Source: Candidatus Altiarchaeales archaeon (GTDB lineage: Archaea > Altiarchaeota > Altiarchaeia > IMC4 > SCGC-AAA252-I15). Taken from it: a stretch of DNA of 37,396 nucleotides. A program made the position numbers and the translations under genes. Shown piece after piece: positions 1-37,373 of this stretch. The notes under the pieces were generated by a model, which was given only the letters and a program-made list of their open reading frames with translations, was not told where the DNA came from and did no database searches. The stretch is from NCBI GenBank assembly GCA_011380095.1, contig DSAL01000063.1:1-37396 (forward strand), in the 5' to 3' direction. Position 1 is the stretch's first letter. Each line of letters starts with the position of its first letter.

Positions 1-1119
1 AATTAATTCTTTGTACATATCTTTCCCCCAAGTCTCGTAGGGAAAATCTTTGATTCTTTTCAAGCCGGCTTCAACAAGCTTTCTCCTCGCTTTTTCGTCC
101 TCTAAAAGCCGTATTATTTCAGACGCAAGTTGTTTCTCATCATCCACTCTGACAACGACTCCTGCATCTCCTAAAACCCAGGGGGTCGAGCCGGAGTCCA
201 TTCCTATTATTGGAATACCGCACGCCATTGCCTCAAGATATACCATGCCAAATCCCTCGCCAACGGAAGTGAGGACAAATAGTGTCGACTTTTTCATGTA
301 GTCTAAGACCTTCTCCTTTGGAATCTTGCCGAGAAAATTGATTTTATCCCGCACTCCGAGTTTTTCGGCATAATCTTCAAGGGGTTTGGTTTCACCGTCT
401 CCGGCTAAAAACAGTCTTGCGGCGGGCTTTTTCCCGGCTACTTTGGCAAAACACTTTATCAGGTATTCCGGTCTTTTTTCAGGAGACAGTCTTGCCGCGG
501 AAAAGATGGTGTCGGGCACCCCCTCAAGTGAAATGTTTTCTTGCCGTCTGACGCGGTTGGGTATCACGATAATTTTTCTGCCGCCGAGTTCCCTGAGTTT
601 TTTTTCAAGAACCGGCGATACTGCAATATTCACGCTCGAAACCTTCATGTTTAGATGATATAAAAGTTCTGATTTTCGGGTGGAGACACACCATTGGGCT
701 GGAAATCCTATAAAAAAAGACGCATTCCGTATTTTCCTGACCTTTGCAAGAAGATTTGTGAGAAGCCCCAGAAGAAGCGGATTGAAGTTTAGCATGACTG
801 TCCCGCATTCAAGGTGTCTGGATACTGTTTTAAGATACTTTAACACGAAAAAAGTTTTCAGAAACAGAGTTTTGGGGAAACCTGATTTTTTGTAGGAGAT
901 TTTTTCAATGAGAAACTTTCCGTCTGCCGAATAGCCCGTGTTTTCACTGAAACTCCCTGAAACAACAGTAATCTTGTCAAAAAAGGGCTCCAAAACCAAA
1001 AGCCTCTCGCGTATTACTGGCGCGGGAAAAATATTTAACTTATCCCCGATCATGTCATATACGGGTATGGGCGGGATTACGAGTAGTTTCTTCAAAGCGG
1101 CATTTTTGTTTGGTTTCAC
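1..1119 (-). CDS. Glycosyltransferase, GT4/GT1-type (C-terminus runs off the window edge)
   Basis: Absent from the ORF track because it has no stop inside the window. My reverse-strand translation is open from 1119 down to 1. It reads ...FLGKIPKEKVLDYMKKSTLFVLTSVGEGFGMVYLEAMACGIPIIGMDSGSTPWVLGDAGVVV..., the typical E-x7-E C-terminal region of GT4 enzymes. Start is uncertain: GTG 1119 (GTGA overlap with the upstream stop), TTG 1095 (MKKLLVIPP...) or ATG 1053. Confidence 0.8.
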   Translation of the reverse strand, partial: MKPNKNAALKKLLVIPPIPVYDMIGDKLNIFPAPVIRERLLVLEPFFDKITVVSGSFSENTGYSADGKFLIEKISYKKSGFPKTLFLKTFFVLKYLKTVSRHLECGTVMLNFNPLLLGLLTNLLAKVRKIRNASFFIGFPAQWCVSTRKSELLYHLNMKVSSVNIAVSPVLEKKLRELGGRKIIVIPNRVRRQENISLEGVPDTIFSAARLSPEKRPEYLIKCFAKVAGKKPAARLFLAGDGETKPLEDYAEKLGVRDKINFLGKIPKEKVLDYMKKSTLFVLTSVGEGFGMVYLEAMACGIPIIGMDSGSTPWVLGDAGVVVRVDDEKQLASEIIRLLEDEKARRKLVEAGLKRIKDFPYETWGKDMYKELI

Positions 1120-2081
1120 TCAAGACCACCCAGTTGTGAAGCGAGTTTAATCCAGCCGTAGTCTAGCGAGTGCCCCCTGATTTTTTTGCGTTCGAGTTTT
1201 TCTGCTTGAAGAATGGCTTGAGCCAGTTTATCAGGCCTTGATTCTTTGATTAGTACTCCGCATTCTTCCGTCAATATTTCGGGGATTCCTCCGGTATTTG
1301 AGGCGACGACAGGCGTCCCGCAAGCCATTGATTCGAGAATCGACAGTGGTGTTCCCTCCTGTCTTGACGGCAGGCAGAATACTGATGCTTGATTGTAGAA
1401 TCCGGGCATTTTTTCGTGTTCGATATTGCCGTGGTATTTCACGCGGTCTGTTGAGACGCCCGCGGGTTCCCCGACAACATCCAAGACATATTCTTCGGGG
1501 AGATAGTCCATTGTTTTTAGGAGTATGTCGAATCCTTTGGCTTTTCCGACACGGCCGACGAAAAGAACCCTTTTGCTCGACTTCTTGCTCCCGGAAGGCT
1601 TGAACAGTCCCGTGTCAACTCCCGGGTAAGCCAGCACAAGCTTCTCTTTTTTTGAGAACCTTGAAGCGAACTTCAAAAGGCCGTGGTTGATGCAGACAAT
1701 CTTGTCCGCGAAGATGAAGTCGAATAATTCGAGGATTGAGTCAAAGAAAGTGAACGGGAAAAACATGGTGGAGGGATGTTTGAAGATTCTTTGAAGCCCC
1801 GAACCGTGGAAAATAGAGACGACCTTTTTCGTCCGTAAAATTGGCCTGAAGCTGTGGCTGTTGGAGATGACCAGGTCGAAGCCGGAAAGGTCGCGTGGCG
1901 TGATGGAAAACAGTATCATGTTCAATGTCGACTTCAAGTGCCCTGAAAGCTTTTTCCCGGTGGAAATGTATTCAACCTCATGGCCAATCTCTTCAAATGC
2001 AGAACCAAGATTCTTGAGGTAGTTTTCAACCCCGCCAGTATTCTTGAACGGGTCTGAATGATTTAGCAACGCAATCTTCAT
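1116..2081 (-). CDS. Glycosyltransferase, GT4/GT1-type
   Basis: 321-aa ORF. N-terminus is MKIALLNHSDPFKNTGGVENY. C-terminal motif is FCLPSRQEGTPLSILESMACGTPVVASNTGGIPE. It has a 4-nt overlap with the upstream gene (2078-2081). Confidence 0.85.
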   Translation of the reverse strand: MKIALLNHSDPFKNTGGVENYLKNLGSAFEEIGHEVEYISTGKKLSGHLKSTLNMILFSITPRDLSGFDLVISNSHSFRPILRTKKVVSIFHGSGLQRIFKHPSTMFFPFTFFDSILELFDFIFADKIVCINHGLLKFASRFSKKEKLVLAYPGVDTGLFKPSGSKKSSKRVLFVGRVGKAKGFDILLKTMDYLPEEYVLDVVGEPAGVSTDRVKYHGNIEHEKMPGFYNQASVFCLPSRQEGTPLSILESMACGTPVVASNTGGIPEILTEECGVLIKESRPDKLAQAILQAEKLERKKIRGHSLDYGWIKLASQLGGLE

Positions 2082-3184
2082 TGATCACCACCGTAAGCGT
2101 TCAACAGATTTTTGGAAATCGACTTCCAGCCGTACTCGTCTTCGGCGCGTTTTCTCGCCAAAGACGCCTTATGCCCGGCATCTTCAGGATTCTCGTGAAT
2201 CTTTCTGAAAGCCTTGGCCAAAGCCTTCGGGTCGCCGGGCGCAACCAGGTATCCTGTTCCCCCAAGGATTTTGGGGAGGTCGCCGACAGATGATGCGACA
2301 ATCGGCTTTCCCAAACCCATGTACTCGAAAATCTTCATGTTGCATTGGTATCGAACGCCAGGCAGGTCCTCGAATGGAGCCGTCAAGACATCCGCCAACG
2401 CCAGTACTTTAGGAAGGTCATCATGAAACACCCGGCCCTTGAAGTCAAAGAAGTCTTCCAGTTTTTTCTCTGCCACAATAGACTTGAGTTTCGCAAGACC
2501 GTCGCCTGAGCCGACGATAATGCATTTTATTTTGGGGATGTCTTTTCGGGCAAGAGCGACCGCGGCAACTATCGGGAGTATATGCCTGTACTTTTGTATC
2601 ATGCCGAGAAACAAGATGTTAAACCCCTCGTGTTTTTCACTCGACGGCCTGAACTTCTCCAAGTCCACGCCATTCGGGACGTAAAAACACTTGCCGTGGT
2701 ATTTTCCCGCAATTTTCTCCTTCAAAAGAAGATGGTTGGCGTAGAGTATCGCATCAGAGAATGCTGACCCGATTTTCGTGAAAATTTGCGAAACAAGAAT
2801 CTTGAATGCCGACTCCCCGTTATCGTTCAAAGTGTAGGGGTCCCACTCGTCGCAGTCGAAGACAAGCCTGCAACCGGAAGTCCACTTGTAGACCAATGCG
2901 GGAATCAGTGTGAAGGGGTGAGGCTTCAATGCGTGGACGACGTCCGGCCTGAAGTTCCTCAAAAACTTTAAAGTATTCAAGGTCCAGGCCGGAAGTTTCA
3001 GCAAAGACTTGTCTTCCAGAGGAAAGAAAAGATGCGTATCTTCCGGCGACCCGCCATACCTGTCGTTTTTCGGAAGAATAATAACCCAGTCTAAACTGGT
3101 CTCCTTCACAAGGTCGCGAAGGCGGGTCGAACCCCCGCCAGACATTGAAAACGGTGAGATTAATGCGGCTTTCACTTTAAACAA
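2078..3184 (-). CDS. Glycosyltransferase, GT4/GT1-type
   Basis: 368-aa ORF. The C-terminal half, ...FLGMIQKYRHI...VGSGDG...KIFEYMGLGKPIVASSVGDLPKIL, fits the Glycos_transf_1 fold. Same strand and operon as the flanking GTs. Confidence 0.8.
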   Translation of the reverse strand: MFKVKAALISPFSMSGGGSTRLRDLVKETSLDWVIILPKNDRYGGSPEDTHLFFPLEDKSLLKLPAWTLNTLKFLRNFRPDVVHALKPHPFTLIPALVYKWTSGCRLVFDCDEWDPYTLNDNGESAFKILVSQIFTKIGSAFSDAILYANHLLLKEKIAGKYHGKCFYVPNGVDLEKFRPSSEKHEGFNILFLGMIQKYRHILPIVAAVALARKDIPKIKCIIVGSGDGLAKLKSIVAEKKLEDFFDFKGRVFHDDLPKVLALADVLTAPFEDLPGVRYQCNMKIFEYMGLGKPIVASSVGDLPKILGGTGYLVAPGDPKALAKAFRKIHENPEDAGHKASLARKRAEDEYGWKSISKNLLNAYGGDQ

Positions 3185-3208
3185 AATGGGATTAGACGGT
3201 TAAAGTCT

Positions 3209-4339
3209 TTATTTCACAAGACTTTCGTACTCTTCCTTGATTTTCCCGCAGACCGCATCTGCCGTGAAAAGCTCTTCCACACGCCTCCTGCCTAAAACAC
3301 CATCATCGACCGCCAGCTCCTCATCCGACAATAGTTTGATTAAAGCTTCTGAAAGCGCCTTCGGATTTCTCGGCTCAACAGTCAAGCCGGCTTCCCCCAC
3401 CACATACGGCATCCCTGAAATGTTGGTGGTGACCGTCGGCTTCCCGCACGCCATGGCTTCCGCCAAAACAATCCCGAACGCTTCGGCGCGGGTGACGGAT
3501 GGAAGCGCGAAAACATCGCAGGCCGCATAATACTTCGCAAGAGAATCATCTCCAACACGCCCTGCGAAAACGACACTGTCATCCAAACCAAAACCTGAAA
3601 CCTGTTTTTTCAACTTTTCTTCGAGTTCTCCGCTTCCAACCAATACAAGTTTCGCGTCAACCTGTTTGTCCAAAATAATCTTGAATGCGTCAATCAAGTA
3701 TTCCAAGCCCTTGTAGGGGACGAACCTTCCTACGAACAAGATTATTTTTTCTCCGCCTGGCGCCAGCTTCTTTCTCAAATCCTTCGCGTCGATTTGCGGA
3801 TTGTATTTTTGCGGGTCAACGAAATTGGGGGTAATCTTAATTTTGCCACGATACCGCTTCAAAGTCTTTGAGGATTCAGCATAGTCGGGGCTTGTCGCGA
3901 AAATTATTTTAGCTTTCCACAATACGAGTCTTTCGAAAAACCGGTAGAATAGTTTGAATGGAATGTGATACCACCTGTCTTTCACTATGTCGGCGTGATA
4001 TGTGACCGCCATTGGCTTTCGCTTCAAGACGCTCGCAATCAAAGCAGAGATGCTGTTGACGGGGTCCGGAAGATTGACGTCGATCAAGTCGTAGTCTTTT
4101 CGCAAGAGATTCAAGAGTATTCCCGGGGAAAACAGGGCGTTGAATACATCAAGAAATACGCTTGAGCGGTATACTTTAATCCCGTCGATGTCTTCAAACG
4201 AGGACGTCTCTTTTTCATGCGATGTGAAAACCAGGACTTCAACGTCATGCTTTGCAAGCCAGCGGGACAAGTCCAAAACCCGATATTCCAAACCCCCAAG
4301 ATACGGGTAGAAGTGTTTGGATACCATCGCCACCCGCAT
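3209..4339 (-). CDS. Glycosyltransferase, GT4/GT1-type
   Basis: N-terminus MRVAMVSKHFYPYLGGLE is a classic GT4 start. C-terminal motif is FALPSVTRAEAFGIVLAEAMACGKPTVTTNISGMPYVV. The ORF track starts at 4357; I prefer ATG 4339, 3 nt after the upstream stop. Confidence 0.85.
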   Translation of the reverse strand: MRVAMVSKHFYPYLGGLEYRVLDLSRWLAKHDVEVLVFTSHEKETSSFEDIDGIKVYRSSVFLDVFNALFSPGILLNLLRKDYDLIDVNLPDPVNSISALIASVLKRKPMAVTYHADIVKDRWYHIPFKLFYRFFERLVLWKAKIIFATSPDYAESSKTLKRYRGKIKITPNFVDPQKYNPQIDAKDLRKKLAPGGEKIILFVGRFVPYKGLEYLIDAFKIILDKQVDAKLVLVGSGELEEKLKKQVSGFGLDDSVVFAGRVGDDSLAKYYAACDVFALPSVTRAEAFGIVLAEAMACGKPTVTTNISGMPYVVGEAGLTVEPRNPKALSEALIKLLSDEELAVDDGVLGRRRVEELFTADAVCGKIKEEYESLVK

Positions 4340-4341
4340 TG

Positions 4342-5301
4342 CTACACCACGCTCCAAACGGCAATTACCGCGAAAACAATCTCTATCCCAAGAATCGTCA
4401 AAACCAGCCGGGTTTCTGTTATCCCGCCGCTCAAGTACATGACAAGCCGTCCAAGACCGTAGACTTCACTTTTTTTATTGCAGACAAGTTTTCCTCCCTC
4501 AACCCCGCAAAACGACGGCATCCGGAATTTTCCGCGAACCTTCAAAAACAATTCCAAGAAGAATGGGATTATCAGGATTGCTCCAACACGCTCTATGTCG
4601 CCGATGATGACGGATGATGCGACTACCGCGCCGATTGAAAGAGTCCCGGAGTCTCCGATAAATATTTTCGCGGGATTCCAGTTGAAGAAGAGAAATGCCA
4701 GCAGTGCCCCCGCCATGGCGGCCGAAAGTATGAACGCCTCGCTCTCCCCGACAATGATTGAGACGAACGCTATTGTAGCGCACATTATGAGTCCAATGCC
4801 GGCTTCAAGACCGTTGAATCCTGCGAGCATGTTGCATGCGTTGGCAGCGCCCGTTATTGCTATTGGAATAAGGAGAAGCGGATAGAGTATTCCAAAGTCC
4901 ACCGGACCGATGACTGGGAACGTCATCGTGGTTACTCCCGCCTTGACCGCGACAAGCGGGAGCGCCGCGAAAATCGGGAGCAATGCTTTCGTGGATTGTC
5001 GGACATAGATTAGGTCGTCGATAATCCCGATGATTGATATTATCAACACGACGCTCAAGCCTGAAAGAAGAAGCGTCATGTCGAAAGAGCCGTTGCCCAA
5101 CGCGATTGAAAACAATACTGCGACGACAAAGCCGGCTACAATAGAAAGTCCGCCCATCTCCGGAACGTCCGGCTTAGACGCTTTGTTCATGTCTTTGACA
5201 GTCAGGCCGGCGTCGGAAAGCCTTCTGATAAACCATGGTGTCGCCAAAAGCGTGAATGCCATCGCGACAAGGGGTATGAAGACGTATTCCGGCTCTATCA
5301 T
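4342..5301 (-). CDS. Polyprenyl/dolichyl-phosphate N-acetylhexosamine-1-phosphate transferase (MraY/WecA/AglH family)
   Basis: 319-aa multi-pass membrane protein. Family motifs are GIIDDLIYVRQSTK, NACNMLAGFNGLEAG and FIGDSGTLSIG. It is the first gene of the GT operon. Confidence 0.85.
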   Translation of the reverse strand: MIEPEYVFIPLVAMAFTLLATPWFIRRLSDAGLTVKDMNKASKPDVPEMGGLSIVAGFVVAVLFSIALGNGSFDMTLLLSGLSVVLIISIIGIIDDLIYVRQSTKALLPIFAALPLVAVKAGVTTMTFPVIGPVDFGILYPLLLIPIAITGAANACNMLAGFNGLEAGIGLIMCATIAFVSIIVGESEAFILSAAMAGALLAFLFFNWNPAKIFIGDSGTLSIGAVVASSVIIGDIERVGAILIIPFFLELFLKVRGKFRMPSFCGVEGGKLVCNKKSEVYGLGRLVMYLSGGITETRLVLTILGIEIVFAVIAVWSVV

Positions 5302-5386
5302 TGTCGTGTAATAAATCTAAAAGACGGTTAAAAACAGGAGGGTGTGGGGCGTTTAAATAAGAGTTTTCATTTATTGTATTTGAGAG

Positions 5387-5551
5387 ATGGATTTAACTAG
5401 GATTCCCGTATGGGAGTTGGCGTTGATGGCGGCGGCGGGCGTTGCGGTAGTAATCGTATTCATGCTCTGGTGGTTCCTCGGCTACGACCTGGCTGTCGTA
5501 GCCAAAGCCGGAGCCTCAATGCAGGCGGGTCTTGCGTCAATTCTAGTTTAG
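5387..5551 (+). CDS. Small hypothetical membrane protein (54 aa, below the ORF-track cutoff)
   Basis: Hand translation gives MDLTRIPVWELALMAAAGVAVVIVFMLWWFLGYDLAVVAKAGASMQAGLASILV*. It has one clear TM helix. A TTTAAATA TATA-like box at 5352-5359 lies about 30 nt upstream of the ATG. The 3-prime end overlaps the convergent PadR gene by 9 nt. Confidence 0.3.
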   Translation: MDLTRIPVWELALMAAAGVAVVIVFMLWWFLGYDLAVVAKAGASMQAGLASILV

Positions 5552-5872
5552 GCCGGATTGCCTAAATAGTTTTTTTGTGAGGAGTTGAACGTATTTTTCG
5601 CCTTTTTTCAGAAGATTCTCGCCTTCTTCGGTTATCGTATAGTATTTCCTCTTCCTGTTTTCGATGGTCTCCCACTGGGCTTTCACGAATCCGTCGCGCT
5701 CGAGCTTGTATAATACCATGTAGGCTGTAACCTGCCCTATCTTGAAGCCTGACTGGCTTTCAAGCTTTTCCCTGACTTCATAGGCGTAGAGTGGCTTGTC
5801 CTTCATGAGCGAGAGGATATGAATCCAAAGGCATTCGATTGTCGTCTTTCTCTTAAGCCTCTCCAACGGCAT
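5543..5872 (-). CDS. PadR-family winged-helix transcriptional regulator
   Basis: 109 aa. The stretch YAYEVREKLESQSGFKIGQVTAYMVLYKLERDGFVKAQWETIENRKRKYYTITEEGENLL matches the PadR wHTH signature. Confidence 0.8.
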   Translation of the reverse strand: MPLERLKRKTTIECLWIHILSLMKDKPLYAYEVREKLESQSGFKIGQVTAYMVLYKLERDGFVKAQWETIENRKRKYYTITEEGENLLKKGEKYVQLLTKKLFRQSGLN

Positions 5873-5952
5873 TGTTTTACACCCGTAAAATAATTTATTA
5901 ACTATTGAACCTATTGTTTTACAGTTATAAAATAAGAGATGGTGTTTGGATT
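5873..5952. promoter_or_regulatory. Divergent promoter region between the PadR and inositol-phosphate synthase genes
   Basis: AT-rich 80-nt spacer. A TTATAAAATA TATA-like element at 5925-5934 lies 19-28 nt upstream of ATG 5953. TAATTTATTA at 5891-5900 could serve the minus-strand PadR gene. Confidence 0.4.
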
Positions 5953-7038
5953 ATGGGCAGAATCAAGATTGCACTGGTCGGAGTTGGAAACTGCGCCTCA
6001 AGCCTCGTGCAGGGACGCGAATACTACAAGAACATTGACGGAAACGACCCGCTCGTGCCGGGACTAATGCACAACGTGGTCGGCGGATACGCGATAAAAG
6101 ACATCGATTTTGTCGCCGCATTCGACATAGACAAAAACAAGGTGGGAAAAGACTTGGGCGACGCTGTTTTCTCAAAACCAAACTGCACTACAAAATTCAG
6201 TGACGTCCCGGAATGGAAGGTTGAAGTCAAAAAGGGCCCGGTCCTCGACGGAGTCGGCGAAACCACGAAAGACAAGTTCCTGGTGGACCCAAGCCAGACG
6301 CCGGTTGATGTCGCAAGAGAACTCGAAGACTCTGGAGCCGAAATCCTCATGAACTACCTGCCGGTAGGCTCGGAAAAGGCCGCAAGATTCTACGCGGAAG
6401 AATGCCTGAAAGCCGGAGTCGCATTCATCAACGCCATGCCAGTCTTCATAGCATCAACCAAAGAGTGGGACGAGCGTTTCAGGCAGGCGGGAGTCCCGAC
6501 AATCGGCGACGACATCAAAAGCCAGCTTGGCGCAACAATCGTACACCGCGTCCTGACAAAACTTTTCGTCGACAGGGGAGTGAAACTCGACCACACATAC
6601 CAGCTGAATGTCGGCGGAAACACCGACTTTCTGAACATGCTCGAACGAACCAGACTAAAAAGCAAGAAAATCAGCAAGACGCAGTCCGTCCAATCACAGC
6701 TTCCAACAAAACTCGCGCCAGAAGACATACACATCGGTCCGTCAGACTACGTCCCCTGGCTGAACGACAACAAGCTCTGCTTCATCAGGATGGAGGGCAG
6801 GAAATTCGGCGACGTCCCCCTAAACCTCGAGTTAAGGCTTTCGGTTGAAGACAGCCCTAACAGCGCGGGAGTCATGGTTGACGCGATAAGGTGCGCGAAA
6901 CTCGCACTCGACCGAGGAGTATCAGGAACTCTCACAAGCCCGTCAAGCTATTTCATGAAAAGCCCGATGATACAGTACAGTGACGACGTGTGCAGAAATC
7001 TTGTGGAAGAATACATCAAAGGCGAAAGAGAAAGATAG
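5953..7038 (+). CDS. ino1: myo-Inositol-1-phosphate synthase (actinobacterial/Thermotoga-type Ino1)
   Basis: The ORF aligns end to end by eye with M. tuberculosis Ino1. Matching stretches include [91 protein letters not shown] and FGDVPLNLE. The track starts at TTG 5905; ATG 5953 ([13 protein letters not shown]) is preferred. Confidence 0.93.
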
Positions 7039-7088
7039 TGGATTAATGCAGGAGGTAAAAAAACCCCACCACCAAACACTTTTCCAAG

Positions 7089-7096
7089 TTTTTTAA
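7089..7096 (+). promoter_or_regulatory. TATA-like box (TTTTTTAA) inside a 16-mer shared with the C/D sRNA promoter
   Basis: TTCCAAGTTTTTTAAG at 7082-7097 is identical to 36372-36387. It lies about 35-40 nt upstream of ATG 7131, implying a short leader or none. Confidence 0.4.
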
Positions 7097-7130
7097 GGGC
7101 GTAAAAGAAAGTTTGTTTCAGGCAAAAAAA

Positions 7131-7742
7131 ATGTTGAAGTCAAGCTTTGGAAGACAGGTCGAATGGATTAGCGTGAAAATAGGGATAGTTTTCGCAAGAC
7201 TCAGAATTCCACCGAACATTTGGACTATACTCGCGCTCGCCCCCGCCATAATCGGACTCTACGCACTATACCAAAAAATGCTTTTTGAGGCGGTAGTCCT
7301 CTTCTTCATATCAGGCTTCATCGACGCGATAGACGGCGCGGTCGCGAGAGTCACAGGGTCGGAGAGCGCGATTGGAGCGTTCCTAGACGGCGTCGTCGAC
7401 AGGTATGTGGAAATATTTCTCTACATAGGACTCCTAACCTATCTTTCAGGGACTGCCACGCCGATAATCCCGCTTGAGGCCTGGATTATCGTGCTCGTAT
7501 TCGGGGCTCTCATGCCCTCCTTCATAACGGCGTACGCAGACCACAGGGGCGTCATAACAGAGCCTGAAAAGCTTAAGAGGATGGGTGGCCTGATAGAGCG
7601 TGCGGAACGCTTGAACATACTCTATCTCGGAATGATTTTAGGGATATTTGATGTAATTTACCTGGTATATGCTGTGGTCGGAGTCGCAGTACTGGCTAAT
7701 CTGACGGCATTACAGCGGACTGCGTACGTCCTCAGGCACTAA
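7131..7742 (+). CDS. CDP-alcohol phosphatidyltransferase, likely archaetidylinositol-phosphate synthase
   Basis: The motif DAIDGAVARVTGSESAIGAFLDGVVDR matches D-x2-DG-x2-AR-x8-G-x3-D-x3-D. Multi-TM protein. Adjacency to MIPS suggests an inositol-phosphate acceptor (inference). The track starts at TTG 7113; ATG 7131 is preferred. Confidence 0.75.
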   Translation: MLKSSFGRQVEWISVKIGIVFARLRIPPNIWTILALAPAIIGLYALYQKMLFEAVVLFFISGFIDAIDGAVARVTGSESAIGAFLDGVVDRYVEIFLYIGLLTYLSGTATPIIPLEAWIIVLVFGALMPSFITAYADHRGVITEPEKLKRMGGLIERAERLNILYLGMILGIFDVIYLVYAVVGVAVLANLTALQRTAYVLRH

Positions 7743-15058: not shown

Positions 15059-15475
15059 ATGGACGGTTTGGCGGGATACTTTGACATGCTCTACAAGTTA
15101 AGTGTGATGTTGGGATTCACGATTTTTTTGATTAAGCTTCCCGCCTGGATAACCTGCTTCAGGCTTGGAGCCAAAAAGGACTTGTTTGAATGCCGGATGT
15201 GCGGGAACTGCTGCCGATTCAATATAATAGATGTGAACAAGAAGGATGTTGAAAGGTTTCGGGCTGACGGATACTCCGAGTTCACCGATGAAAATGAGAA
15301 GATGATGAAGCGGGTGAACGGCAGATGCATTTTTCTTGAAGACGACAAGTGCAGCGCCCACAAGTCGAGGGGGAAGGTTTGCAGGGAGTTTCCCTTCCAG
15401 CGGATTTACGGGAGATGGTTCTGCCAGGAAGTGCAGTTCTGTCCCGGCGTTGATGATTTGAAGAAGAAGCTATGA
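15059..15475 (+). CDS. YkgJ/UPF0153-family cysteine-cluster protein (CxxCxxCC)
   Basis: Motifs are CRMCGNCCRF and GRCIFLEDDKCSAHKSRGKVCREFP. The start could instead be ATG 15086 (MLYKL), given the TATAAAAA at 15046-15053. The stop overlaps the next start (ATGA). Confidence 0.75.
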   Translation: MDGLAGYFDMLYKLSVMLGFTIFLIKLPAWITCFRLGAKKDLFECRMCGNCCRFNIIDVNKKDVERFRADGYSEFTDENEKMMKRVNGRCIFLEDDKCSAHKSRGKVCREFPFQRIYGRWFCQEVQFCPGVDDLKKKL

Positions 15476-16251
15476 ACGGCGGGGATTTGACTGAACGGTT
15501 TGTGGAGTCCATAAAATGGATTCGCGAAATTTTTCTGCCCATGGACGATATCGCAAATCCCGTCATGGGCATAAGGGAATGGGATGATTCCGTCTGCATC
15601 GAATTTTGCGGAAGGCTTTTAGCCTCCTGCGACGGACCCTACACTAAACGGTTGGTGATGAAGAGCGCGCTCGTACACGCCGCAACAGACGTTGTCGTCA
15701 AGGGCGGAAAGCCCTTGTTCGCCCTTGACTGCGTGATAGGGGGGCGGCCTGATGTGGAGGAGATGATTGATTCGCTTAATATTCAGGCCCTGTCCTTGGA
15801 TATTCCGATTCTTGGCGGAAACACTCTTTTTGAAGATGTTGAGCCAAGAGCCAGCCTGACTGTTGTCGGAGAGCTTTTGCTGGATGCTCCGATACGCGAT
15901 TCCACCGCGGTTTCAGGCGACTTGATAGCGCTTTTGGGCGAACCGGTCTGGGGGGAGCGTGTGGAGCGGCTTGAGATTGCGAAGCGGATGTTTGAAGCCT
16001 GGTTCAAGATTATTGAAGAAGTGGAAATCAATTCCTCAAAAGACGTCACGAAAGGCGGTCTTTCATCATGCATCGCAGAGATGGAGGAGAAGTCCGGCAA
16101 GAAATTCAAGTTGATTGGTAATATCCCGTATCCTTTGGGCCGGAACCTCGACAACTTTTTGGTGACGCTTTCAGAAAAAGAGTTTGAGAAGTTGAAGGAA
16201 GTCTGCGGGGAAAACAAGTGCCGGCTGGAAAAAATCGGTTTTGTGGAATAA
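15472..16251 (+). CDS. PurM/AIR-synthase-related protein (COG2144-like), paralog 1
   Basis: Matching stretches are DDSVCIEF...ASCDGPY, VHAATDVVVKGGKPLFALD, SLDIPILGGNT and ASLTVVGEL. These are the PurM-superfamily N-domain motifs. It is clearly paralogous to 36486-37373. Confidence 0.7.
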   Translation: MNGGDLTERFVESIKWIREIFLPMDDIANPVMGIREWDDSVCIEFCGRLLASCDGPYTKRLVMKSALVHAATDVVVKGGKPLFALDCVIGGRPDVEEMIDSLNIQALSLDIPILGGNTLFEDVEPRASLTVVGELLLDAPIRDSTAVSGDLIALLGEPVWGERVERLEIAKRMFEAWFKIIEEVEINSSKDVTKGGLSSCIAEMEEKSGKKFKLIGNIPYPLGRNLDNFLVTLSEKEFEKLKEVCGENKCRLEKIGFVE

Positions 16252-17566: not shown

Positions 17567-19324
17567 TTGTTGTTTTGGTTGGGGAGCGTGGAGTATCTTG
17601 TGGAAGTCCTAAAACACGGCGGCAGCCTGTCCGAATTTGACAAGGGCAAGATTGTTAAAACCTGCATGACCGCGGGCTGTTCACTGGATTTGGCTTCAAG
17701 GATTGCGGGGGAGATAGAGTCGATATGCTATCCGGGCATGCCGACCATCGAGATACGCGAGAAGGTTTACGGCATGCTCTGCGACATCGACAAAGAACTT
17801 GCCGAAAAATACTTGTACCGCACCAACCTTCGGGTTAGGACTTCAGACTACCAGCTGAAGAAATTCAACGGGCAAAAGATTACCGACTCTCTTGTGACGG
17901 AGACTCTTGTTGACGAGGAGTTCGCCTCCCAAATCGCCAAGGCCGTCGAAAAGGAGCTGGCGAAACTCAAGCTCGATTATGTGACGGCACCCCTCATCCG
18001 CGAGATTGTGAACGTCAAGCTTTTGGAGGAGGGCATGGAGAGCGTCCGCGCCAAATACACAAGACTTGGAATGCCGGTATATGACGTGAAAGAGCTTTTC
18101 AGGGGCGTCGGGCTTGAGGGAGGATTCTGCCCCCAACGGATTAGGGATGCGATGGCTGAGCAGATAATAACCGAATACACCCTCCTTAACATCCTGCCTC
18201 CGGCTCTCGCCGACAGCCATCTTAAGGGGGATTTGAACATACACTACATCCGCGATTTTCCGCTGAAGGCGGAGTCTTTCAGCCATCCCTTGAAAATATT
18301 TCTGGAAAAAGGGTTGGACTGGAATGGGACTGAAACGTTCGTCTTGGAAAAGCCTGCGAAAACAGGAGGCGATTTCGTGAGGCATTTGAGAAAGATTTCA
18401 TACTCGGCAGGGCTTGAATTGAGCGGACTGCAGGTTTTCCCGGGCATTTTGGAGTTAGCTAAAAAGTTCGCGAGAAAAGACGCGGAAAAATTCGTGAAAG
18501 AAATGGTTTCCGAACTGTCCTACGCAAGCAGGATAACGGAGAGCGGGAGGGTGATGCTGTCGCTTGAAGACGTGGGCGATTTTTCAAAAAGCCTTGTCAA
18601 ACCGCTTTTGGAAAACAGTGGTGACGCCAACGGCCTTGTATTTTGGATTGACGCGAAAGATGCGCAAACCCTGAGGACTGCGGTAGGGAGAAAACCGTGG
18701 GGCGCGCAAATAATTTTGGGGAAGACTCCGGCATATTTTGAGCCGGAGATGGGTGTCGCCCAGACCGTCTGCATAAACCTCGCCCACGCCGAAAGCCTTG
18801 AGGGGGAGGTGGAGTCTGTGCAAAGGCTTTTGAAGGACGCTAAGGAAATCCTGATTTTCAAGAAGAAGATGCTGCAGGAAAACCACAGGAAGGGTTTGTG
18901 GAGCTATCTCGGCCAAATGCAGGAGGGGACGGCGGTTTACGACCCGCTTAAACAGGAGTATGTGATATCTTTCTGCGGGCTTGAAAGCGTTTCGGAAAAA
19001 GAGTTGGGGGAAACACAGGTTCTTGAATCAATGCGAAAATACGTCAACAGCCTGAAGAAGAAGAGCGGCATGCGGTTCATGCTCAAAAAGTGCGGTTGCC
19101 CGGAATGCTGCGCCAGGTTTGCGCGGATTGACGGAAAACGCTCCTGCAAAAATAAAGTTAATCTGCTGGAAGAGTTTGGCGAGGTTGTCGAACGCTGGAA
19201 CATGATTTCACGATACGCCGACAGTCAAAGCCCGATTGAGGTTGACGGCGGGAAAGCCTCCAAAAAGATTATTGAAGCGTGCACGGGTTTATTGGAGCGT
19301 GGAATACCAATACGATTTGTTTAG
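17567..19324 (+). CDS. Double ATP-cone protein with class III RNR (NrdD)-like body, apparently lacking radical motifs
   Basis: There are two ATP-cone-like segments: VEVLKHGGSLSEFDKGKIVKT... and LRVRTSDYQLKKFNGQKITDSL.... The body shows NrdD-like stretches: SHLKGDLNIHYIRDF, EKPAKTGG and VAQTVCINLAHAE. The C-terminus has a CGCPECC..C cluster but I see no RVCGY-type glycyl-radical motif. The start is probably GTG 17588 (VEYLVEVLKHGG) rather than TTG 17567. Confidence 0.55.
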   Translation: MLFWLGSVEYLVEVLKHGGSLSEFDKGKIVKTCMTAGCSLDLASRIAGEIESICYPGMPTIEIREKVYGMLCDIDKELAEKYLYRTNLRVRTSDYQLKKFNGQKITDSLVTETLVDEEFASQIAKAVEKELAKLKLDYVTAPLIREIVNVKLLEEGMESVRAKYTRLGMPVYDVKELFRGVGLEGGFCPQRIRDAMAEQIITEYTLLNILPPALADSHLKGDLNIHYIRDFPLKAESFSHPLKIFLEKGLDWNGTETFVLEKPAKTGGDFVRHLRKISYSAGLELSGLQVFPGILELAKKFARKDAEKFVKEMVSELSYASRITESGRVMLSLEDVGDFSKSLVKPLLENSGDANGLVFWIDAKDAQTLRTAVGRKPWGAQIILGKTPAYFEPEMGVAQTVCINLAHAESLEGEVESVQRLLKDAKEILIFKKKMLQENHRKGLWSYLGQMQEGTAVYDPLKQEYVISFCGLESVSEKELGETQVLESMRKYVNSLKKKSGMRFMLKKCGCPECCARFARIDGKRSCKNKVNLLEEFGEVVERWNMISRYADSQSPIEVDGGKASKKIIEACTGLLERGIPIRFV

Positions 19325-32741: not shown

Positions 32742-34277
32742 TTATTTAAAGCATTCCCTAACATGGTTTCTGTCTAACGTTAAAAGGAGGGCTGCGGCCT
32801 TTGGACCCTTTTCCTTTCCAATGAGTGTGGTGTAGATTGCCTTGAATAGTTGGGGGGGTTTCAGGTCATTCGCTCTTGCAGTATTGTAAATTGTCTTGTG
32901 GAACTCCTCCGCAGTCTGCGGCTTGTCCAGTTGTTTTGAAAGCTCCCGCAAACACTTTTTCTCAACGTCTGTGAGTTTGGAAAATTCTTTCCTCGCCCCG
33001 TCAACCGTGTTGAGCGTGAAAGTCAATTGCTCCGGCCCATACTGCCTAACCCAGTTTCCGGCGACCCGCACGCGCTCGACCAAACGCTCCGCATCGAAGT
33101 CACAGTATCCTGAAAAGTTGGCGCGCTCGACAATCACGCTATCGTCAAGCTCTGGAACAACTTGTGCAAGTACTGCGCAGAACGTGTAGGGCACATTCAG
33201 TTTTTTCGGCTCCCCCACTTGGGAGAGGAGATACTGGAGTGACTCATCGCTTCCCGCGCTTGAAAAGTATTGTGCTTCCGCCTGGTCGTATTCGTCAGCC
33301 ATCGGGGGAATCCTTGATAAATCTATGTCGCGCTGTTTGTTCAGCTTCTTGTACATGAAATAGTTCAAGACTTCGGGCTCGGCTATTTCAAGCCAGCCTG
33401 CAGGAGTTATCACGTTGCCCTTGCTCGAACTTATCTTCTCCCCGTTCAAAGTCAAAAACTCGTAGATGACCGGGACCGGAGCATCACGACCGAAGATGTT
33501 CTCGATGATTTTCTTGCTCGTCCAATAAGAGCCTCCCGCCGACGCATGGTCTTTTCCGAAAGGCTCGCACGTAACCTTGAAGTGGTTCCAGCGTGACGCC
33601 CACTCGACCCGCCAAGGCATCTTGCCCATGCCGTCTTTTATGTCTGAAACTCCCTGGTGGCCGCATCCCGCGACTTCCCCGCCCTTAACTTCAGCGCCTT
33701 CGCAGACGTAGGAGACTTTGTCGCCGTCAACGGCAGTCGCGCGCGTACTTGAAATCTTACCGCACTTCTCGCAAATCGGAGTCCAAGGAATCCAGTCCGC
33801 ATCCAACGGCGTGTCACGGAACTCGTTGAGGATGGAGATGATTTCAGCTCTGCGCTCAATCACAATCCTAATCTCCTCAAGCAGTTGTCCCGAGCGGTAG
33901 ATTTCGGTTCCGGAATAGACTTTCGGCTTTACTCCGAATGATTTGAGGCTTTCGAGGAAGGGTTTTGCGAAATGTTCGACGAAATTGTCGTGGCAGCCGT
34001 CTGGGTCTGGAATGTCTTTCACGGGATAGCCGAGATATTCCTTCAAGGATTCCATGCCCTTCGGAACGCTCCTGAACGGGTCTGAATCGTCCGCAACCCA
34101 GACTAGTTCCGCCGGATATCCTGAGCGCTCGACCGCCTTCCTAACGCATTCTCCCCGTATGATGTCGCTCGCGTTCCCAAGGTGGGGGATGCCCGAGATG
34201 CTTGTGCCCGTTTCAATTACGACCTTCTTGTCGCCTCTTGAAACACACTCCTCGGCGGTCGTAGTACTCCAGTGCAT
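32742..34277 (-). CDS. lysK: Lysyl-tRNA synthetase, class I
   Basis: MHWSTTTAEE is the class I LysRS start (MHWAD...). GTSISGIPHLGNASD is the HIGH region and KISSSKGN is KMSKS-like. The track starts at TTG 34298; ATG 34277 is preferred. Confidence 0.92.
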   Translation of the reverse strand: MHWSTTTAEECVSRGDKKVVIETGTSISGIPHLGNASDIIRGECVRKAVERSGYPAELVWVADDSDPFRSVPKGMESLKEYLGYPVKDIPDPDGCHDNFVEHFAKPFLESLKSFGVKPKVYSGTEIYRSGQLLEEIRIVIERRAEIISILNEFRDTPLDADWIPWTPICEKCGKISSTRATAVDGDKVSYVCEGAEVKGGEVAGCGHQGVSDIKDGMGKMPWRVEWASRWNHFKVTCEPFGKDHASAGGSYWTSKKIIENIFGRDAPVPVIYEFLTLNGEKISSSKGNVITPAGWLEIAEPEVLNYFMYKKLNKQRDIDLSRIPPMADEYDQAEAQYFSSAGSDESLQYLLSQVGEPKKLNVPYTFCAVLAQVVPELDDSVIVERANFSGYCDFDAERLVERVRVAGNWVRQYGPEQLTFTLNTVDGARKEFSKLTDVEKKCLRELSKQLDKPQTAEEFHKTIYNTARANDLKPPQLFKAIYTTLIGKEKGPKAAALLLTLDRNHVRECFK

Positions 34278-34307
34278 GGAGTATTTAATTGTATTCAAAG
34301 ATAATTA

Positions 34308-36257
34308 ATGTTTAGAATGGCGCAAGAGTTGGGTTTCAGACGGCTGGCTTATGTCGACGTGTTTCGCGGGTTCGCCCTACTCTACATGGTAGTCTGCCAC
34401 CTCTTCACATACTTCTCGGACAAGAGCGTCTACACTTCAAAACCATACTACATTCCCGCGCTAAACATTCCGACACTGCTTCCGCCACCCTACATGTTTT
34501 TCGTGGTCGCCGGAATGAGCGTCTGGCTCATGCTGGAAAAAAGAAGGGATGAAGGATGCTCGGGGATTACGTTGGCGTGGAAAGGAATCAGAAGATACGG
34601 CATATATGTTTTGATCAGCCTGCCTTTCACATGGTTCATGTTCGGCCTAAACGCCTATTTCACGTGGGCTGAGGCGATACAAGGGATAGGACTTGCGGCT
34701 GTAGTCATAGCATCAATACTTTCTTTCAAAAGATTCAAGTCAGAAACGCTTCTTCTCGCGTCAATCATCATCTACTCGCTAAAAGACGTTTTGTCTTCAA
34801 CATCGATTGCGTGGAGCGTTCCCTACAATCTTGAAGGCGGAATAACCGCCTCAATCCTCGGCCTGCTATTCAACATGACGTTCCGCGGATGGTTCAGTCT
34901 CGTGAGCGCGGCCCCCATGCTTTTGGCGGGCGTCGCATTCATCCAATGGTTCACGCGCGGAGAATCCAAAAAAGTTTTTCAGGCTGGAGTCTTGTTTTTC
35001 GCAACAGCAATGCTCCTGCAGATAATCGGGTTTCCTGCGAATTATTACGAGAGAAACTGGCCGACGATATTTTACATAATAGGGATATCGGCTCTCGCAT
35101 GCACTCTGCTGCACCATCTTGTGGAGGAGAAAAACTGGGGTGGGAAACTAAAGCCCGTGAGCCTGTACGGATTCTTCAGCCTCTACATCTACCTCGGCCA
35201 CTTCCTGTTCATCGTAAAACCGCTTGAGATAACAGGAATGCTCGGCGCCTTCAACGAGATTTCAGGATGGATTCTGGCCGCGATGGCGACAACACTTCTT
35301 TACGCGCTCGCCGAAGTCTACACCGCACGTAAAAAGAAAGTGGGTTTCAAACTGTTGAATACTTTAGATTTTCTGCAGGCGACCATAGTAGTAGTAGTCT
35401 TGATTTATGCTACCGGATTCGTCCTAAACGGCTTTTCGACCGGCGAAAAAATCCTTGTTGTCTGCGCCCACCCGGATGATGAGACGTTCGGCGCTGGTGG
35501 CGTGATAATCAAAAACGTGCTGGCTGGAAATCATGTGAAGATTCTGATGTTCACGGACGGTTCGCCCTCAGAATTCGGGGGAACACGAGAATACGCAAAA
35601 CAGAGGCGGATGGAATTGGAGAAGGCAATGTCTGTTGCGGGCGTCGCCAAAAGAGACATAGTATATCTCGGCTATGACGACCTCAACTTCATCTTCGAGC
35701 TCGGAAAAACTGGAATTGACGAAAGCGTGGGGAGGATCGCAGATATTATCCGAGACTACAAGCCAGACAAGATTTACGTCCACGCCTACGACCACGGAAA
35801 CCTCGACCACGACTCCGTCAACTACATCACAGTCCGCGCCATCGAAAAAACAGGCGTTATGGGAATCAAACTCTACGAGTTCACGCAATACACAAAATTC
35901 GGCTACCACACTCCGATTCCGAAAAAATTAAGCGTCGTCGACCATGAAAAATACCCTGTAGTCGAACTCAAGATGACTGCCGCCGAAGAGGATTTGAAGA
36001 AAAAGATGGGGGGCTACTACGTCTCCCAAGACCAGTACGGCGTATGCGACCTCACAACCGACTGGCCAGAACCACGCAAAGAATGCGCAGACTCCATAAA
36101 CAAATTCTTCTACCACAAAGACCTGATACGAAAATACCCGGGCTACGACTACACAAAAAGCCCATGCCTAAACGACTCCTGCAGGCATGTGGAAATCCAT
36201 GGAGGAGTAAACTGGAGCGGATGGTACAGTATAATCCAAGAATACGAAAACCGGTAG
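34308..36257 (+). CDS. Fusion protein: DUF1624/HGSNAT-like acyltransferase-3-clan membrane domain + PIG-L/LmbE-family deacetylase
   Basis: The N-terminal ~370 aa are polytopic and open with RRLAYVDVFRGFALLYMVVCH, like R..S.D.FRG.A...MV of HGSNAT/DUF1624. The C-terminal ~270 aa carry KILVVCAHPDDETFGAGG and HAYDHGNLDHD, the PIG-L metal-site motifs. It is one uninterrupted ORF. Confidence 0.75.
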   Translation: MFRMAQELGFRRLAYVDVFRGFALLYMVVCHLFTYFSDKSVYTSKPYYIPALNIPTLLPPPYMFFVVAGMSVWLMLEKRRDEGCSGITLAWKGIRRYGIYVLISLPFTWFMFGLNAYFTWAEAIQGIGLAAVVIASILSFKRFKSETLLLASIIIYSLKDVLSSTSIAWSVPYNLEGGITASILGLLFNMTFRGWFSLVSAAPMLLAGVAFIQWFTRGESKKVFQAGVLFFATAMLLQIIGFPANYYERNWPTIFYIIGISALACTLLHHLVEEKNWGGKLKPVSLYGFFSLYIYLGHFLFIVKPLEITGMLGAFNEISGWILAAMATTLLYALAEVYTARKKKVGFKLLNTLDFLQATIVVVVLIYATGFVLNGFSTGEKILVVCAHPDDETFGAGGVIIKNVLAGNHVKILMFTDGSPSEFGGTREYAKQRRMELEKAMSVAGVAKRDIVYLGYDDLNFIFELGKTGIDESVGRIADIIRDYKPDKIYVHAYDHGNLDHDSVNYITVRAIEKTGVMGIKLYEFTQYTKFGYHTPIPKKLSVVDHEKYPVVELKMTAAEEDLKKKMGGYYVSQDQYGVCDLTTDWPEPRKECADSINKFFYHKDLIRKYPGYDYTKSPCLNDSCRHVEIHGGVNWSGWYSIIQEYENR

Positions 36258-36485: not shown

Positions 36486-37373
36486 ATGAAGTATGATATC
36501 GAACGGAGCCTGAACCATATCGGCGAGACGAACGCCATCCGCAAACTACTCTGGAGGATGGACGAGAAGGTCGACAAGCTCAGCTTTGGAATACAGCAGG
36601 GCGACGACTGCATCGTAGTCGACGACATGGTATTCAACATGGAAGGACCATACCCCATGAAGATCGGCAGGAAAACCGGCCTCGTCCACAGCTGCAGCGA
36701 CATCGTAGTCATGGGGGGCCGTCCGCTTTTCGCCCTCAACTCCATGCAAGTCGATTCTCTTGAACAGGCTTCGGAAGTCGCGGAAGACATCAAAAAACAA
36801 AGCGAACGCTTGGGCGTGCCCATGGTCGGGGGAAACACCCAGCTTGAAAATGACATTATACCATGCGTCTCGTTCACGGTAGTCGGACGGCTCGTCGGAA
36901 AACCAATAGCCGACGGAGGCGTGCAAGACGGCGACAAGATAATAATGCTCGGAGAAGTCGTGGAAGGCGACATCGGGGAACGATGCTATCGGGCGAAAAC
37001 CAAGTTTGAGACATTCCTCGACATACTCGAAAAAGGCGTTGAAGTCCATGCGGCAAAAGACGCAAGCCGGGGAGGCTGGTTCGGAAACCTGACTGAAATG
37101 CTATTGAAAAGCCAGATGGGAGTCAACGTGACAAGCATCCCATACCCGGACATAAGCCGCTACATGGGCAACTACCTGATAGCGCTTCCCGCCGGTGAAG
37201 TTGAAAAAGTCGTGGGGATAGCCGCCAAACACAAGTGTCCGGTAGTCGAAGTCGGAACCGCGACAAAAAAACAGGAGATATTCTTGGGCGGGGAAGTAGT
37301 GGTGGACGAGAATAAATTCATGGAGTTAATCAAAAACACACCCTACAAAAAACCAAGGACAAAAAAAGAATAA
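36486..37373 (+). CDS. PurM/AIR-synthase-related protein (COG2144-like), paralog 2
   Basis: Matching stretches are QQGDDCIVVDDMVFNMEGPY, VHSCSDIVVMGGRPLFALN, RLGVPMVGGNT, VSFTVVGRL and HAAKDASRGGW. It is paralogous to 15472-16251. Confidence 0.7.
   Translation: MKYDIERSLNHIGETNAIRKLLWRMDEKVDKLSFGIQQGDDCIVVDDMVFNMEGPYPMKIGRKTGLVHSCSDIVVMGGRPLFALNSMQVDSLEQASEVAEDIKKQSERLGVPMVGGNTQLENDIIPCVSFTVVGRLVGKPIADGGVQDGDKIIMLGEVVEGDIGERCYRAKTKFETFLDILEKGVEVHAAKDASRGGWFGNLTEMLLKSQMGVNVTSIPYPDISRYMGNYLIALPAGEVEKVVGIAAKHKCPVVEVGTATKKQEIFLGGEVVVDENKFMELIKNTPYKKPRTKKE

Follow-up and report, generated by a model that had tools for sequence, protein, structure and literature searches.

What might a single archaeal protein accomplish by joining a membrane-embedded acyl-transfer domain to a sugar deacetylase? 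The question is raised by one gene on a contig of Candidatus Altiarchaeales archaeon (DSAL01000063.1, positions 1 to 37,396 of the forward strand; this whole stretch of 37,396 nucleotides is called the window below), the product of which is labelled 'hypothetical' or 'PIG-L family deacetylase' in public records. The answer we favour, with a chance that we would put slightly above even, is that the fusion protein is an enzyme embedded in the membrane that edits the acyl groups of an amino-sugar glycan at the outer face of the cytoplasmic membrane. We favour it because the fusion is conserved, because the membrane domain has exported deacetylase partners of two folds, and because the residues expected to contact coenzyme A (CoA) are retained. 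An earlier note on this DNA had put forward a lipid pathway resembling glycosylphosphatidylinositol (GPI) synthesis and had kept an acetyl-editing enzyme for surface glycans as its fallback; the exported partners and the glycan context point to the fallback. The parts of the gene, with window positions, are:

34308..36257, + strand: the whole fusion open reading frame (ORF), ATG start, 649 aa plus stop codon
34308..35336, + strand: ten-helix membrane domain, aa 1-343, from the HGSNAT_cat match, the AlphaFold2 helices and the HGSNAT fold match
34341..34400, + strand: motif R12-x4-D17-x2-R20-G21...M27...H31 on transmembrane helix 1 (TM1), from the profile alignment and family conservation
34593..34601, + strand: R96-Y97-G98, with R96 aligned to HGSNAT R345
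35337..35441, + strand: linker with a predicted 11th transmembrane helix (TM11), aa 344-378 (AlphaFold2 helix 349-375), from AlphaFold2 secondary structure
35442..35852, + strand: PIG-L/LmbE (CE14) deacetylase core, aa 379-515, from Pfam, PDB profile search and fold matches
35466..35483, + strand: A-H388-P-D390-D391-E motif, aligned to the HPDD of Dac and BC1534
35781..35813, + strand: H-A-Y-D-H-G-N498-L-D500-H501-D, aligned to the canonical H-P-D-H motif
35853..36254, + strand: C-terminal extension, aa 516-649, family-specific, from alignments

The earlier note described this locus as a single-ORF fusion of an HGSNAT-type domain of the Acyl_transf_3 clan and a PIG-L/LmbE deacetylase, and on all of these points it was right. 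Both domains exceed their Pfam gathering cutoffs: HGSNAT_cat (PF07786) matches aa 12-220 at 27.1 bits against a cutoff of 22 (E 3.8e-6), and PIG-L (PF02585) matches aa 383-511 at 82.2 bits against 28.2 (E 6e-23), with identical domain matches when the two halves are queried one by one. The motif RRLAYVDVFRGFALLYMVVCH occupies aa 11-31, AHPDDE aa 387-392 and HAYDHGNLDHD aa 492-502, and the metal-site and general-base residues of the PIG-L family (H388, D390, D391, D500 and H501) are present in the alignment. Public record P0001 has a 646-aa form, which corresponds to a start at another in-frame ATG, at 34317. The AlphaFold2 model of the fusion protein, built from a 19-sequence alignment, is confident (mean predicted local distance difference test score 86.9, predicted template modelling score 0.74). 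Its best fold match in the PDB, as found with Foldseek, is the human HGSNAT structure 8vlv solved by cryo-electron microscopy (E 5.4e-6, ~434 columns), followed for the C-terminal half by MshB, diacetylchitobiose deacetylase, LnmX and BC1534, all with probability 1.00. When 36 members of the membrane-domain family were compared with Pfam, 22 matched Acyl_transf_3 and 18 HGSNAT_cat, while a few matched OpgC_C or DUF418; the window protein itself has no match to PF01757 at E<=1, while those 22 of its 36 relatives do. That one chain combines a membrane acyl-transfer domain with a PIG-L sugar deacetylase domain is confirmed by these results.

The earlier note had also named an assembly artefact as a way in which two genes might have been joined. 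This concern is dispelled by an identical ORF on an independent metagenome contig (L017) and by the recurrence of the architecture in diverged relatives. The same two domains are found in P0002, P0003, P0004, P0006 and P0159, which come from different samples and have 42-55% identity, and the architecture is known from about six diverged lineages. The conserved stretch of the full-length fusion alignment includes the linker helix. The fusion is nevertheless rare: when 1.84 billion representative proteins were searched with an HMMER profile, only two full-length clusters emerged at the 50% identity level, and both fusion records that carry an organism label are from 'Candidatus Altiarchaeales archaeon'.

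The membrane domain also occurs by itself. Exhaustive profile search found ~40 clusters of stand-alone proteins (320-365 aa) that match this domain alone, from Woesearchaeota, Nanoarchaeota, Aenigmatarchaeota and 'Nanoarchaeia', all DPANN, with 31-36% identity to the domain in the window; the membrane-domain family is confined to archaea. The membrane-domain ORFs of the collected loci form 25 clusters at 90% identity, of which four are PIG-L fusions and 21 stand-alone. Directly adjoining 18 of the 21 stand-alone clusters, on the same strand, is a gene for a CE4 deacetylase (Polysacc_deac_1), upstream in 17 cases and downstream in one, with gaps between the two genes of -59 to +74 bp. As for the exceptions, one locus (L010) lies at a contig start, where the upstream side is unreadable, another (L037) lies on a 1.6-kb contig with no CE4 match in the 481 bp readable upstream, and in the third (L013/L014) the downstream gene gives a weak CE4 match. 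The CE4 partners begin with a signal anchor, and their TFDD, HxxxH, PYG and LxxH motifs are intact. In P0057 the membrane domain, one transmembrane helix and the CE4 domain are found in one chain. One type of membrane domain is thus coupled, by fusion or in a tight operon, to two deacetylase folds of unrelated evolutionary origin, which argues for a functional link to deacetylation chemistry itself.

Some proteins depart from this pattern. P0040 (511 aa) is an exception to the deacetylase pairing, with extra helices after the membrane domain and, in the deacetylase's place, a beta-rich C-terminal domain without a Pfam match. No PIG-L gene was found near stand-alone membrane genes in the collected loci. 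A split version of the fusion, with an exported PIG-L gene beside a membrane gene, was considered and rejected; P0063 and P0019 have unrelated neighbours.

The surroundings of the DPANN pairs suggest what kind of substrate may be involved. Within 3-6 kb in seven of these loci is a gene for a membrane GT2 glycosyltransferase with the D, D, D, QR(V/E)RW (QRxRW) signature of processive beta-glycan synthases, for which Pfam gives Glyco_transf_21, Glyco_tranf_2_3 and a faint Chitin_synth match, and S_layer_C proteins are encoded nearby in six. The occurrence of the CE4 pairing near GT2 synthase and S-layer genes points to glycan substrates, not to inositol lipids. Loci in which the CE4 and membrane pair lies near GT2 (QRxRW) and S_layer_C genes are seen at L015 2545-6772 and L042 3539-10112, and also in L009, L024, L027, L030 and L036. 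As a separate observation, the CE4, membrane and GT2 set has the appearance of a polymer system of the Ica or Nod type, so far undescribed in archaea.

If the membrane domain works as an acyltransferase, it would be expected to preserve the residues that bind the acyl donor. The family profile matches human HGSNAT chains at E 1.5e-5, and the alignment pairs R20 with R275, R96 with R345, M27 with M282 and H31 with N286 (family and HGSNAT, respectively). In the HGSNAT structure, R275 and R345 contact the diphosphate of CoA, M282 contacts the cysteamine and N286 the acetyl carbonyl (PMC11199644). Positions 20, 27, 31 and 96 are nearly invariant and among the most conserved in the family. Position 96 is R in 29 of 35 members and K in 5. 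The residue at position 31 varies among Q (found in the majority of DPANN members), H, N and E, a conservative rather than identical substitution relative to HGSNAT N286. In the window protein, R20-X10-H31 is present and fits the 'R/K-X10-H' motif, which is essential in AT3 enzymes (PMC9558356). From this pattern of conservation, the membrane domain probably still threads acyl-CoA across the membrane.

The deacetylase half is of an equally recognizable type. By PDB profile search, its closest solved relatives are archaeal diacetylchitobiose deacetylases (E 1e-14), with BC1534 also found and MshB at E 6e-7; similarity to the NCBIfam models for BshB, MshB and Mca is sub-threshold and far below the equivalog cutoffs (BshB1 54 against 182). 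By analogy with MshB, we take H388 and D391 to be metal ligands and D390 to be the general base, and H501 occupies the position of the third metal ligand in the alignment with the HPDH motif. The AHPDDE-type motif and H501 hardly vary across 19 family members. Beyond the core is an extension, aa 516-649, which no Pfam family covers; it carries the motif R-x2-P-x-YDY-x2-SPC-x-NDSCR and four conserved cysteines (C580, C593, C620 and C625), whose conservation is compatible with disulfides.

As with the membrane domain, the PIG-L half has relatives that stand alone. About 15 clusters in the exhaustive profile search match the PIG-L domain and C-terminal extension alone. All stand-alone homologues of this PIG-L subfamily open with a signal peptide (e.g. 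MNNKLLLIVIFVCLLSVTAQA / KEVLVFAAHPDDE) or a lipobox; these exported homologues share the C-terminal extension, and one has a weak, sub-threshold match to a PKD domain. Seven exported homologues (P0043, P0047, P0048, P0051, P0052, P0058 and P0060; 725-805 aa) carry an insertion of ~450 aa without a Pfam match, placed between the deacetylase core and a conserved C-terminal 'IRxLPxYDY' element. A different arrangement, unrelated to the membrane fusion, is found in P0106 (684 aa), where a GT4 glycosyltransferase is fused to PIG-L, placing PIG-A-like and PIG-L-like domains in one chain.

On which side of the membrane does the deacetylase of the fusion lie? The earlier note had called for a topology prediction, and the one we made puts the deacetylase on the outer face. 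Over 36 family members, a model of ten helices with both ends inside gives ~19 K+R residues in the inside loops against ~6 in the outside loops, while an alternative model, in which the short helix 179-193 spans the membrane, gives 14.6 against 9.8. Stand-alone membrane homologues stop after the tenth helix (TM10) with a basic tail; TM11 is found only in the fusions, where it is preceded by a K/R-rich stretch, ARKKKVGFK, that is predicted to be cytoplasmic. In AT3-SGNH enzymes, an 11th helix likewise puts the partner domain outside the membrane (PMC9558356). Since a ten-helix core with both ends inside is followed by TM11, the PIG-L domain would face the cell exterior, as the loop charges and the homology both suggest.

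A mechanism can be proposed from these elements. The ten-helix domain would be a divergent transmembrane acyltransferase of the AT3/HGSNAT type, which would bind cytoplasmic acyl-CoA in its pore and offer the thioester at the outer mouth. TM11 would take the chain back over the membrane to the metal-dependent PIG-L (CE14) domain outside, and this domain would strip the N-acetyl group from residues of the N-acetylglucosamine (GlcNAc) type. Deacetylation and acylation would target the same surface polymer or oligosaccharide. The freed amine could be re-acylated with a different acyl group, or de-N-acetylation could be accompanied by O-acylation, as proposed for IcaB and IcaC on poly-N-acetylglucosamine (PNAG). 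The fusion would then be the Altiarchaeal one-chain version of the two-gene module of DPANN, which consists of an exported CE4 deacetylase and a membrane protein. We infer the topology, the use of acyl-CoA, the glycan substrate, and the order and chemistry of the steps in this scheme.

Several points weigh against this proposal. The topology is deduced from sequence statistics and homology. In a low-confidence loop alignment, the catalytic dyad of HGSNAT, H297/D307, falls on I49 and P59, and there is no conserved His in the TM1-TM2 loop of the family; NagX keeps the His-Asp dyad of HGSNAT (PMC9007349). A membrane domain without the dyad may not complete the transfer on its own. Since the dyad is missing while the CoA-contacting positions are kept, we infer that the acceptor is activated otherwise than in HGSNAT, possibly with the help of the partner domain. 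In the deacetylase, Asn498 of the window protein replaces the first His of HPDH, where most relatives have H-I-D-H, and the window enzyme may be slower or altered as a result; P0019 and P0066 likewise have Asn at the equivalent position, and P0063 has Ser. To deacetylate a position and then acylate it would achieve nothing if neither the acyl groups nor the positions differed. Finally, the processive GT2 synthase is absent from the window and from the Altiarchaeal fusion contigs, where the context is one of housekeeping genes, and the DPANN synthase hint can be carried over to the window protein only by analogy, through 31-36% identity and an analogous partner.

The genomic context in the window bears on the alternatives, and its relevant features are:

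1116-2081, 2078-3184 and 3209-4357, - strand: three GT4 genes
4342-5301, - strand: PF00953 gene, polyprenyl-phosphate HexNAc-1-P transferase-like
5905-7038, + strand: MIPS (myo-inositol-1-P synthase)
7113-7742, + strand: CDP-alcohol phosphatidyltransferase
32742-34298, divergently oriented: class I LysRS (lysyl-tRNA synthetase), adjoining the fusion gene
36486-37373: AIRS-like gene, downstream of the fusion

The other close neighbours of the fusion are housekeeping genes (PCNA, amino-acid kinase, PfkB, aspartate-semialdehyde dehydrogenase and Cdc48). The order LysRS, fusion, AIRS-like gene is common to the window, L001 and L043, and two further fusion loci sit amid unrelated housekeeping genes.

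The proposal with which the earlier note began was that the two halves act in succession on a GlcNAc-archaetidylinositol lipid, the PIG-L domain removing the N-acetyl group and the membrane domain then acylating the inositol in the manner of PIG-W/GWT1. The founding member of the deacetylase family is PIG-L itself. GWT1 is a member of the same Pfam clan as the membrane domain and carries out its acylation on the luminal side, such that an outward-facing enzyme would be possible; the topology alone is compatible with an outer-face substrate that is linked to a lipid. As the note had said, genes for MIPS, the CDP-alcohol phosphatidyltransferase and several GT4 enzymes are present in the window, but these lie 26.5-33 kb off the fusion, with the inositol genes ~27 kb away and thymidylate kinase, HMG-CoA reductase, TrkH and other unrelated genes in between. 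The association of the fusion with MIPS/AIPS, for which the note had suggested a survey, was not seen beyond the window: the inositol genes were not found at any other fusion locus with readable flanks, on contigs that are short. No PIG-A-like glycosyltransferase adjoins the fusion. Furthermore, GWT1 (PF06423) matches none of the 36 family members at E<=0.1 and does not match the window protein at E<=1, and the nearest solved PIG-L relatives are the chitobiose deacetylases rather than MshB. The PIG-L domain is of an exported type with soluble or lipoprotein homologues (among them the one with the weak PKD match) and is predicted to lie on the outer side, and the membrane domain is paired in DPANN with CE4 polysaccharide deacetylases, in archaea that are largely without lipid synthesis. 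On this evidence the succession of PIG-L and PIG-W-like steps is not supported, and we regard the lipid idea as very unlikely rather than refuted; the fusion offers no evidence of a GPI-like pathway in archaea.

Three other readings were weighed. The membrane domain could be a transporter that imports the product, after the outside deacetylase has converted N-acetyl sugars (chitobiose or GlcNAc, for example) derived from glycans of a host or of the environment. A transport role, for N-acetylmuramate, has been put forward for a distant fold relative, TfMurT (PMC9007349), and the nearest solved PIG-L relatives serve archaeal chitin catabolism. DPANN archaea also depend on scavenging. However, the most conserved positions of the family are the HGSNAT CoA contacts, for which a sugar transporter would have no use, the context is one of S-layer and GT2 synthase genes rather than catabolic ones, and no kinase or deaminase genes adjoin; we consider uptake unlikely. 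Another possibility is that one domain puts on the acetyl group that the other takes off, and that the two together adjust the acetylation level of a surface glycan dynamically. Operons of opposing activities are known, as in the peptidoglycan O-acetylation cluster of PatA/PatB and the Ape esterase, and HGSNAT and NagX are N-acetyltransferases on glucosamine, the exact reverse of PIG-L chemistry. Yet a 1:1 covalent fusion of opposing activities would waste acetyl-CoA unless regulated, no regulatory domain is seen in the protein, and the HGSNAT dyad required for N-acetylation is missing, which makes such a switch rather improbable. The absence of this acceptor-activating His-Asp dyad would be accommodated if the membrane domain were an acyl-CoA conduit and the outside metallo-deacetylase kept the amine, newly freed of its acetyl group and bound to the metal, at the mouth of the pore for N-acyl exchange or N-acylation, in the role that SGNH has for AT3. 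The membrane domain is almost never without an outside deacetylase partner, and AT3-SGNH enzymes require their outside domain for the final transfer. Metal-dependent deacetylases, on the other hand, form no covalent acyl-enzyme intermediate, we know of no in vivo transferase role for the CE4 or CE14 folds, and two unrelated folds would each have to dock productively, for which reasons we give this composite site a low probability. If true, it would be an undescribed transmembrane N-acyl-exchange machine, yielding a modified amino-sugar polymer in the DPANN/Altiarchaeota envelope.

Other observations in the window and at the closest orthologous locus stand apart from the question of function. 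The glycosylation and inositol cluster at 1116-7742 is independent of the fusion and may be a locus for archaetidylinositol or a glycolipid in its own right. If the longest ORFs are taken, only 9 bp separate the LysRS gene from the fusion gene (34270-34330); the true LysRS start is probably a downstream Met (orthologues have 512 aa, against 518 aa here), and this would leave a short AT-rich promoter region common to both genes. Two paralogous relatives of AIR synthase (AIRS/AIRS_C) are encoded at 15472-16251 and 36486-37373, and the position of the second directly downstream of the fusion is kept in L001 and L043. At 17567-19324 is a 585-aa ORF with an ATP-cone, in which the match to the anaerobic ribonucleotide reductase model (NRDD) is confined to model positions 9-130 of 562; it would be a truncated or highly divergent NRDD. 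At the closest orthologous locus (L001 3865-9983), four additional genes separate LysRS from the fusion, the fourth stopping 18 bp ahead of the fusion gene. They encode two exported proteins of the 'sulfatase' superfamily, a 685-aa spermine synthase-like membrane protein and a radical SAM protein with a Tat-like N-terminus, and may be further envelope-modifying enzymes. A heparan-like link of the SGSH/HGSNAT kind through these 'sulfatases' was rejected, as they are without the C/S-x-P-x-R motif and are seen at one locus only.

If the fusion is a glycan editor at the outer face, as we favour, its interest lies in the hosts and in the chemistry. DPANN and Altiarchaeota are uncultivated or hard to grow, lead a host-attached or biofilm life, and have a poorly known envelope chemistry. 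The tight conservation of the module (18 of 21 clusters and two independent fusions) suggests that a partly deacetylated, acylated amino-sugar glycan is made or remodelled there; the bacterial parallel would be PNAG, a driver of adhesion. The known outside partners of AT3 domains are SGNH and alanine racemase, and a metallo-deacetylase is a new one. The fusion is also a natural test of whether AT3-type domains depend on an outside partner for completing the reaction, a question that the field lists as open (PMC9558356). In the literature searched, we found nothing relevant on AT3/PIG-L fusions, on DPANN polysaccharide deacetylases or on glucosaminyl archaetidylinositol. What remains is a tightly conserved envelope module of DPANN and Altiarchaeota archaea, in which the fusion is a further version of the theme of an AT3 domain with an outside domain, and we found no description of this architecture in that literature.

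Among known systems, human HGSNAT and bacterial NagX (PF07786) are the best Pfam and fold match, with the CoA-contacting positions kept, and NagX is also similar in size (~340 aa) as a stand-alone prokaryotic protein (PMC9007349). Unlike these, the archaeal family lacks the His297-Asp307 dyad, is paired with or fused to a deacetylase and is found in archaea only. The predicted layout is closest to that of the AT3-SGNH enzymes (OatA, OafA and OafB), in which a ten-helix domain of the Acyl_transf_3 clan is followed by an 11th helix and an outside C-terminal domain; R/K-X10-H on TM1 (R20...H31) is common to both, and the donor would in both be cytoplasmic acyl-CoA. The outside domain of the fusion differs, being a metal-dependent PIG-L rather than a Ser-His SGNH transferase, and in the window protein the best score is to HGSNAT_cat rather than PF01757 and the RxxR motif is not clearly present. 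With the CE14 enzymes (the diacetylchitobiose deacetylases of Pyrococcus and Thermococcus, BC1534, MshB, BshB and eukaryotic PIG-L), the C-terminal half shares the fold, the AHPDDE motif and the D-H metal site. Characterised PIG-L/LmbE members are cytosolic or face the cytosol, whereas the fusion is predicted to be extracytoplasmic and tethered to the membrane, and it has a Cys-containing C-terminal extension and Asn in place of the first His of HPDH.

A further parallel is the staphylococcal icaADBC operon. In the PNAG operon, IcaB is the CE4 deacetylase and IcaC the AT3 membrane protein, and the activity of IcaC itself is unproven (PMC9558356). The DPANN relatives likewise have an outside CE4 deacetylase (IcaB-like) next to a membrane protein of the AT3 clan (IcaC-like), often with GT2 nearby, while the window enzyme differs from Ica in having PIG-L instead of CE4, in being one chain and in having no adjoining synthase gene. 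By the same logic, the GT2, CE4 and membrane set of DPANN may be likened to NodC, NodB and NodA.

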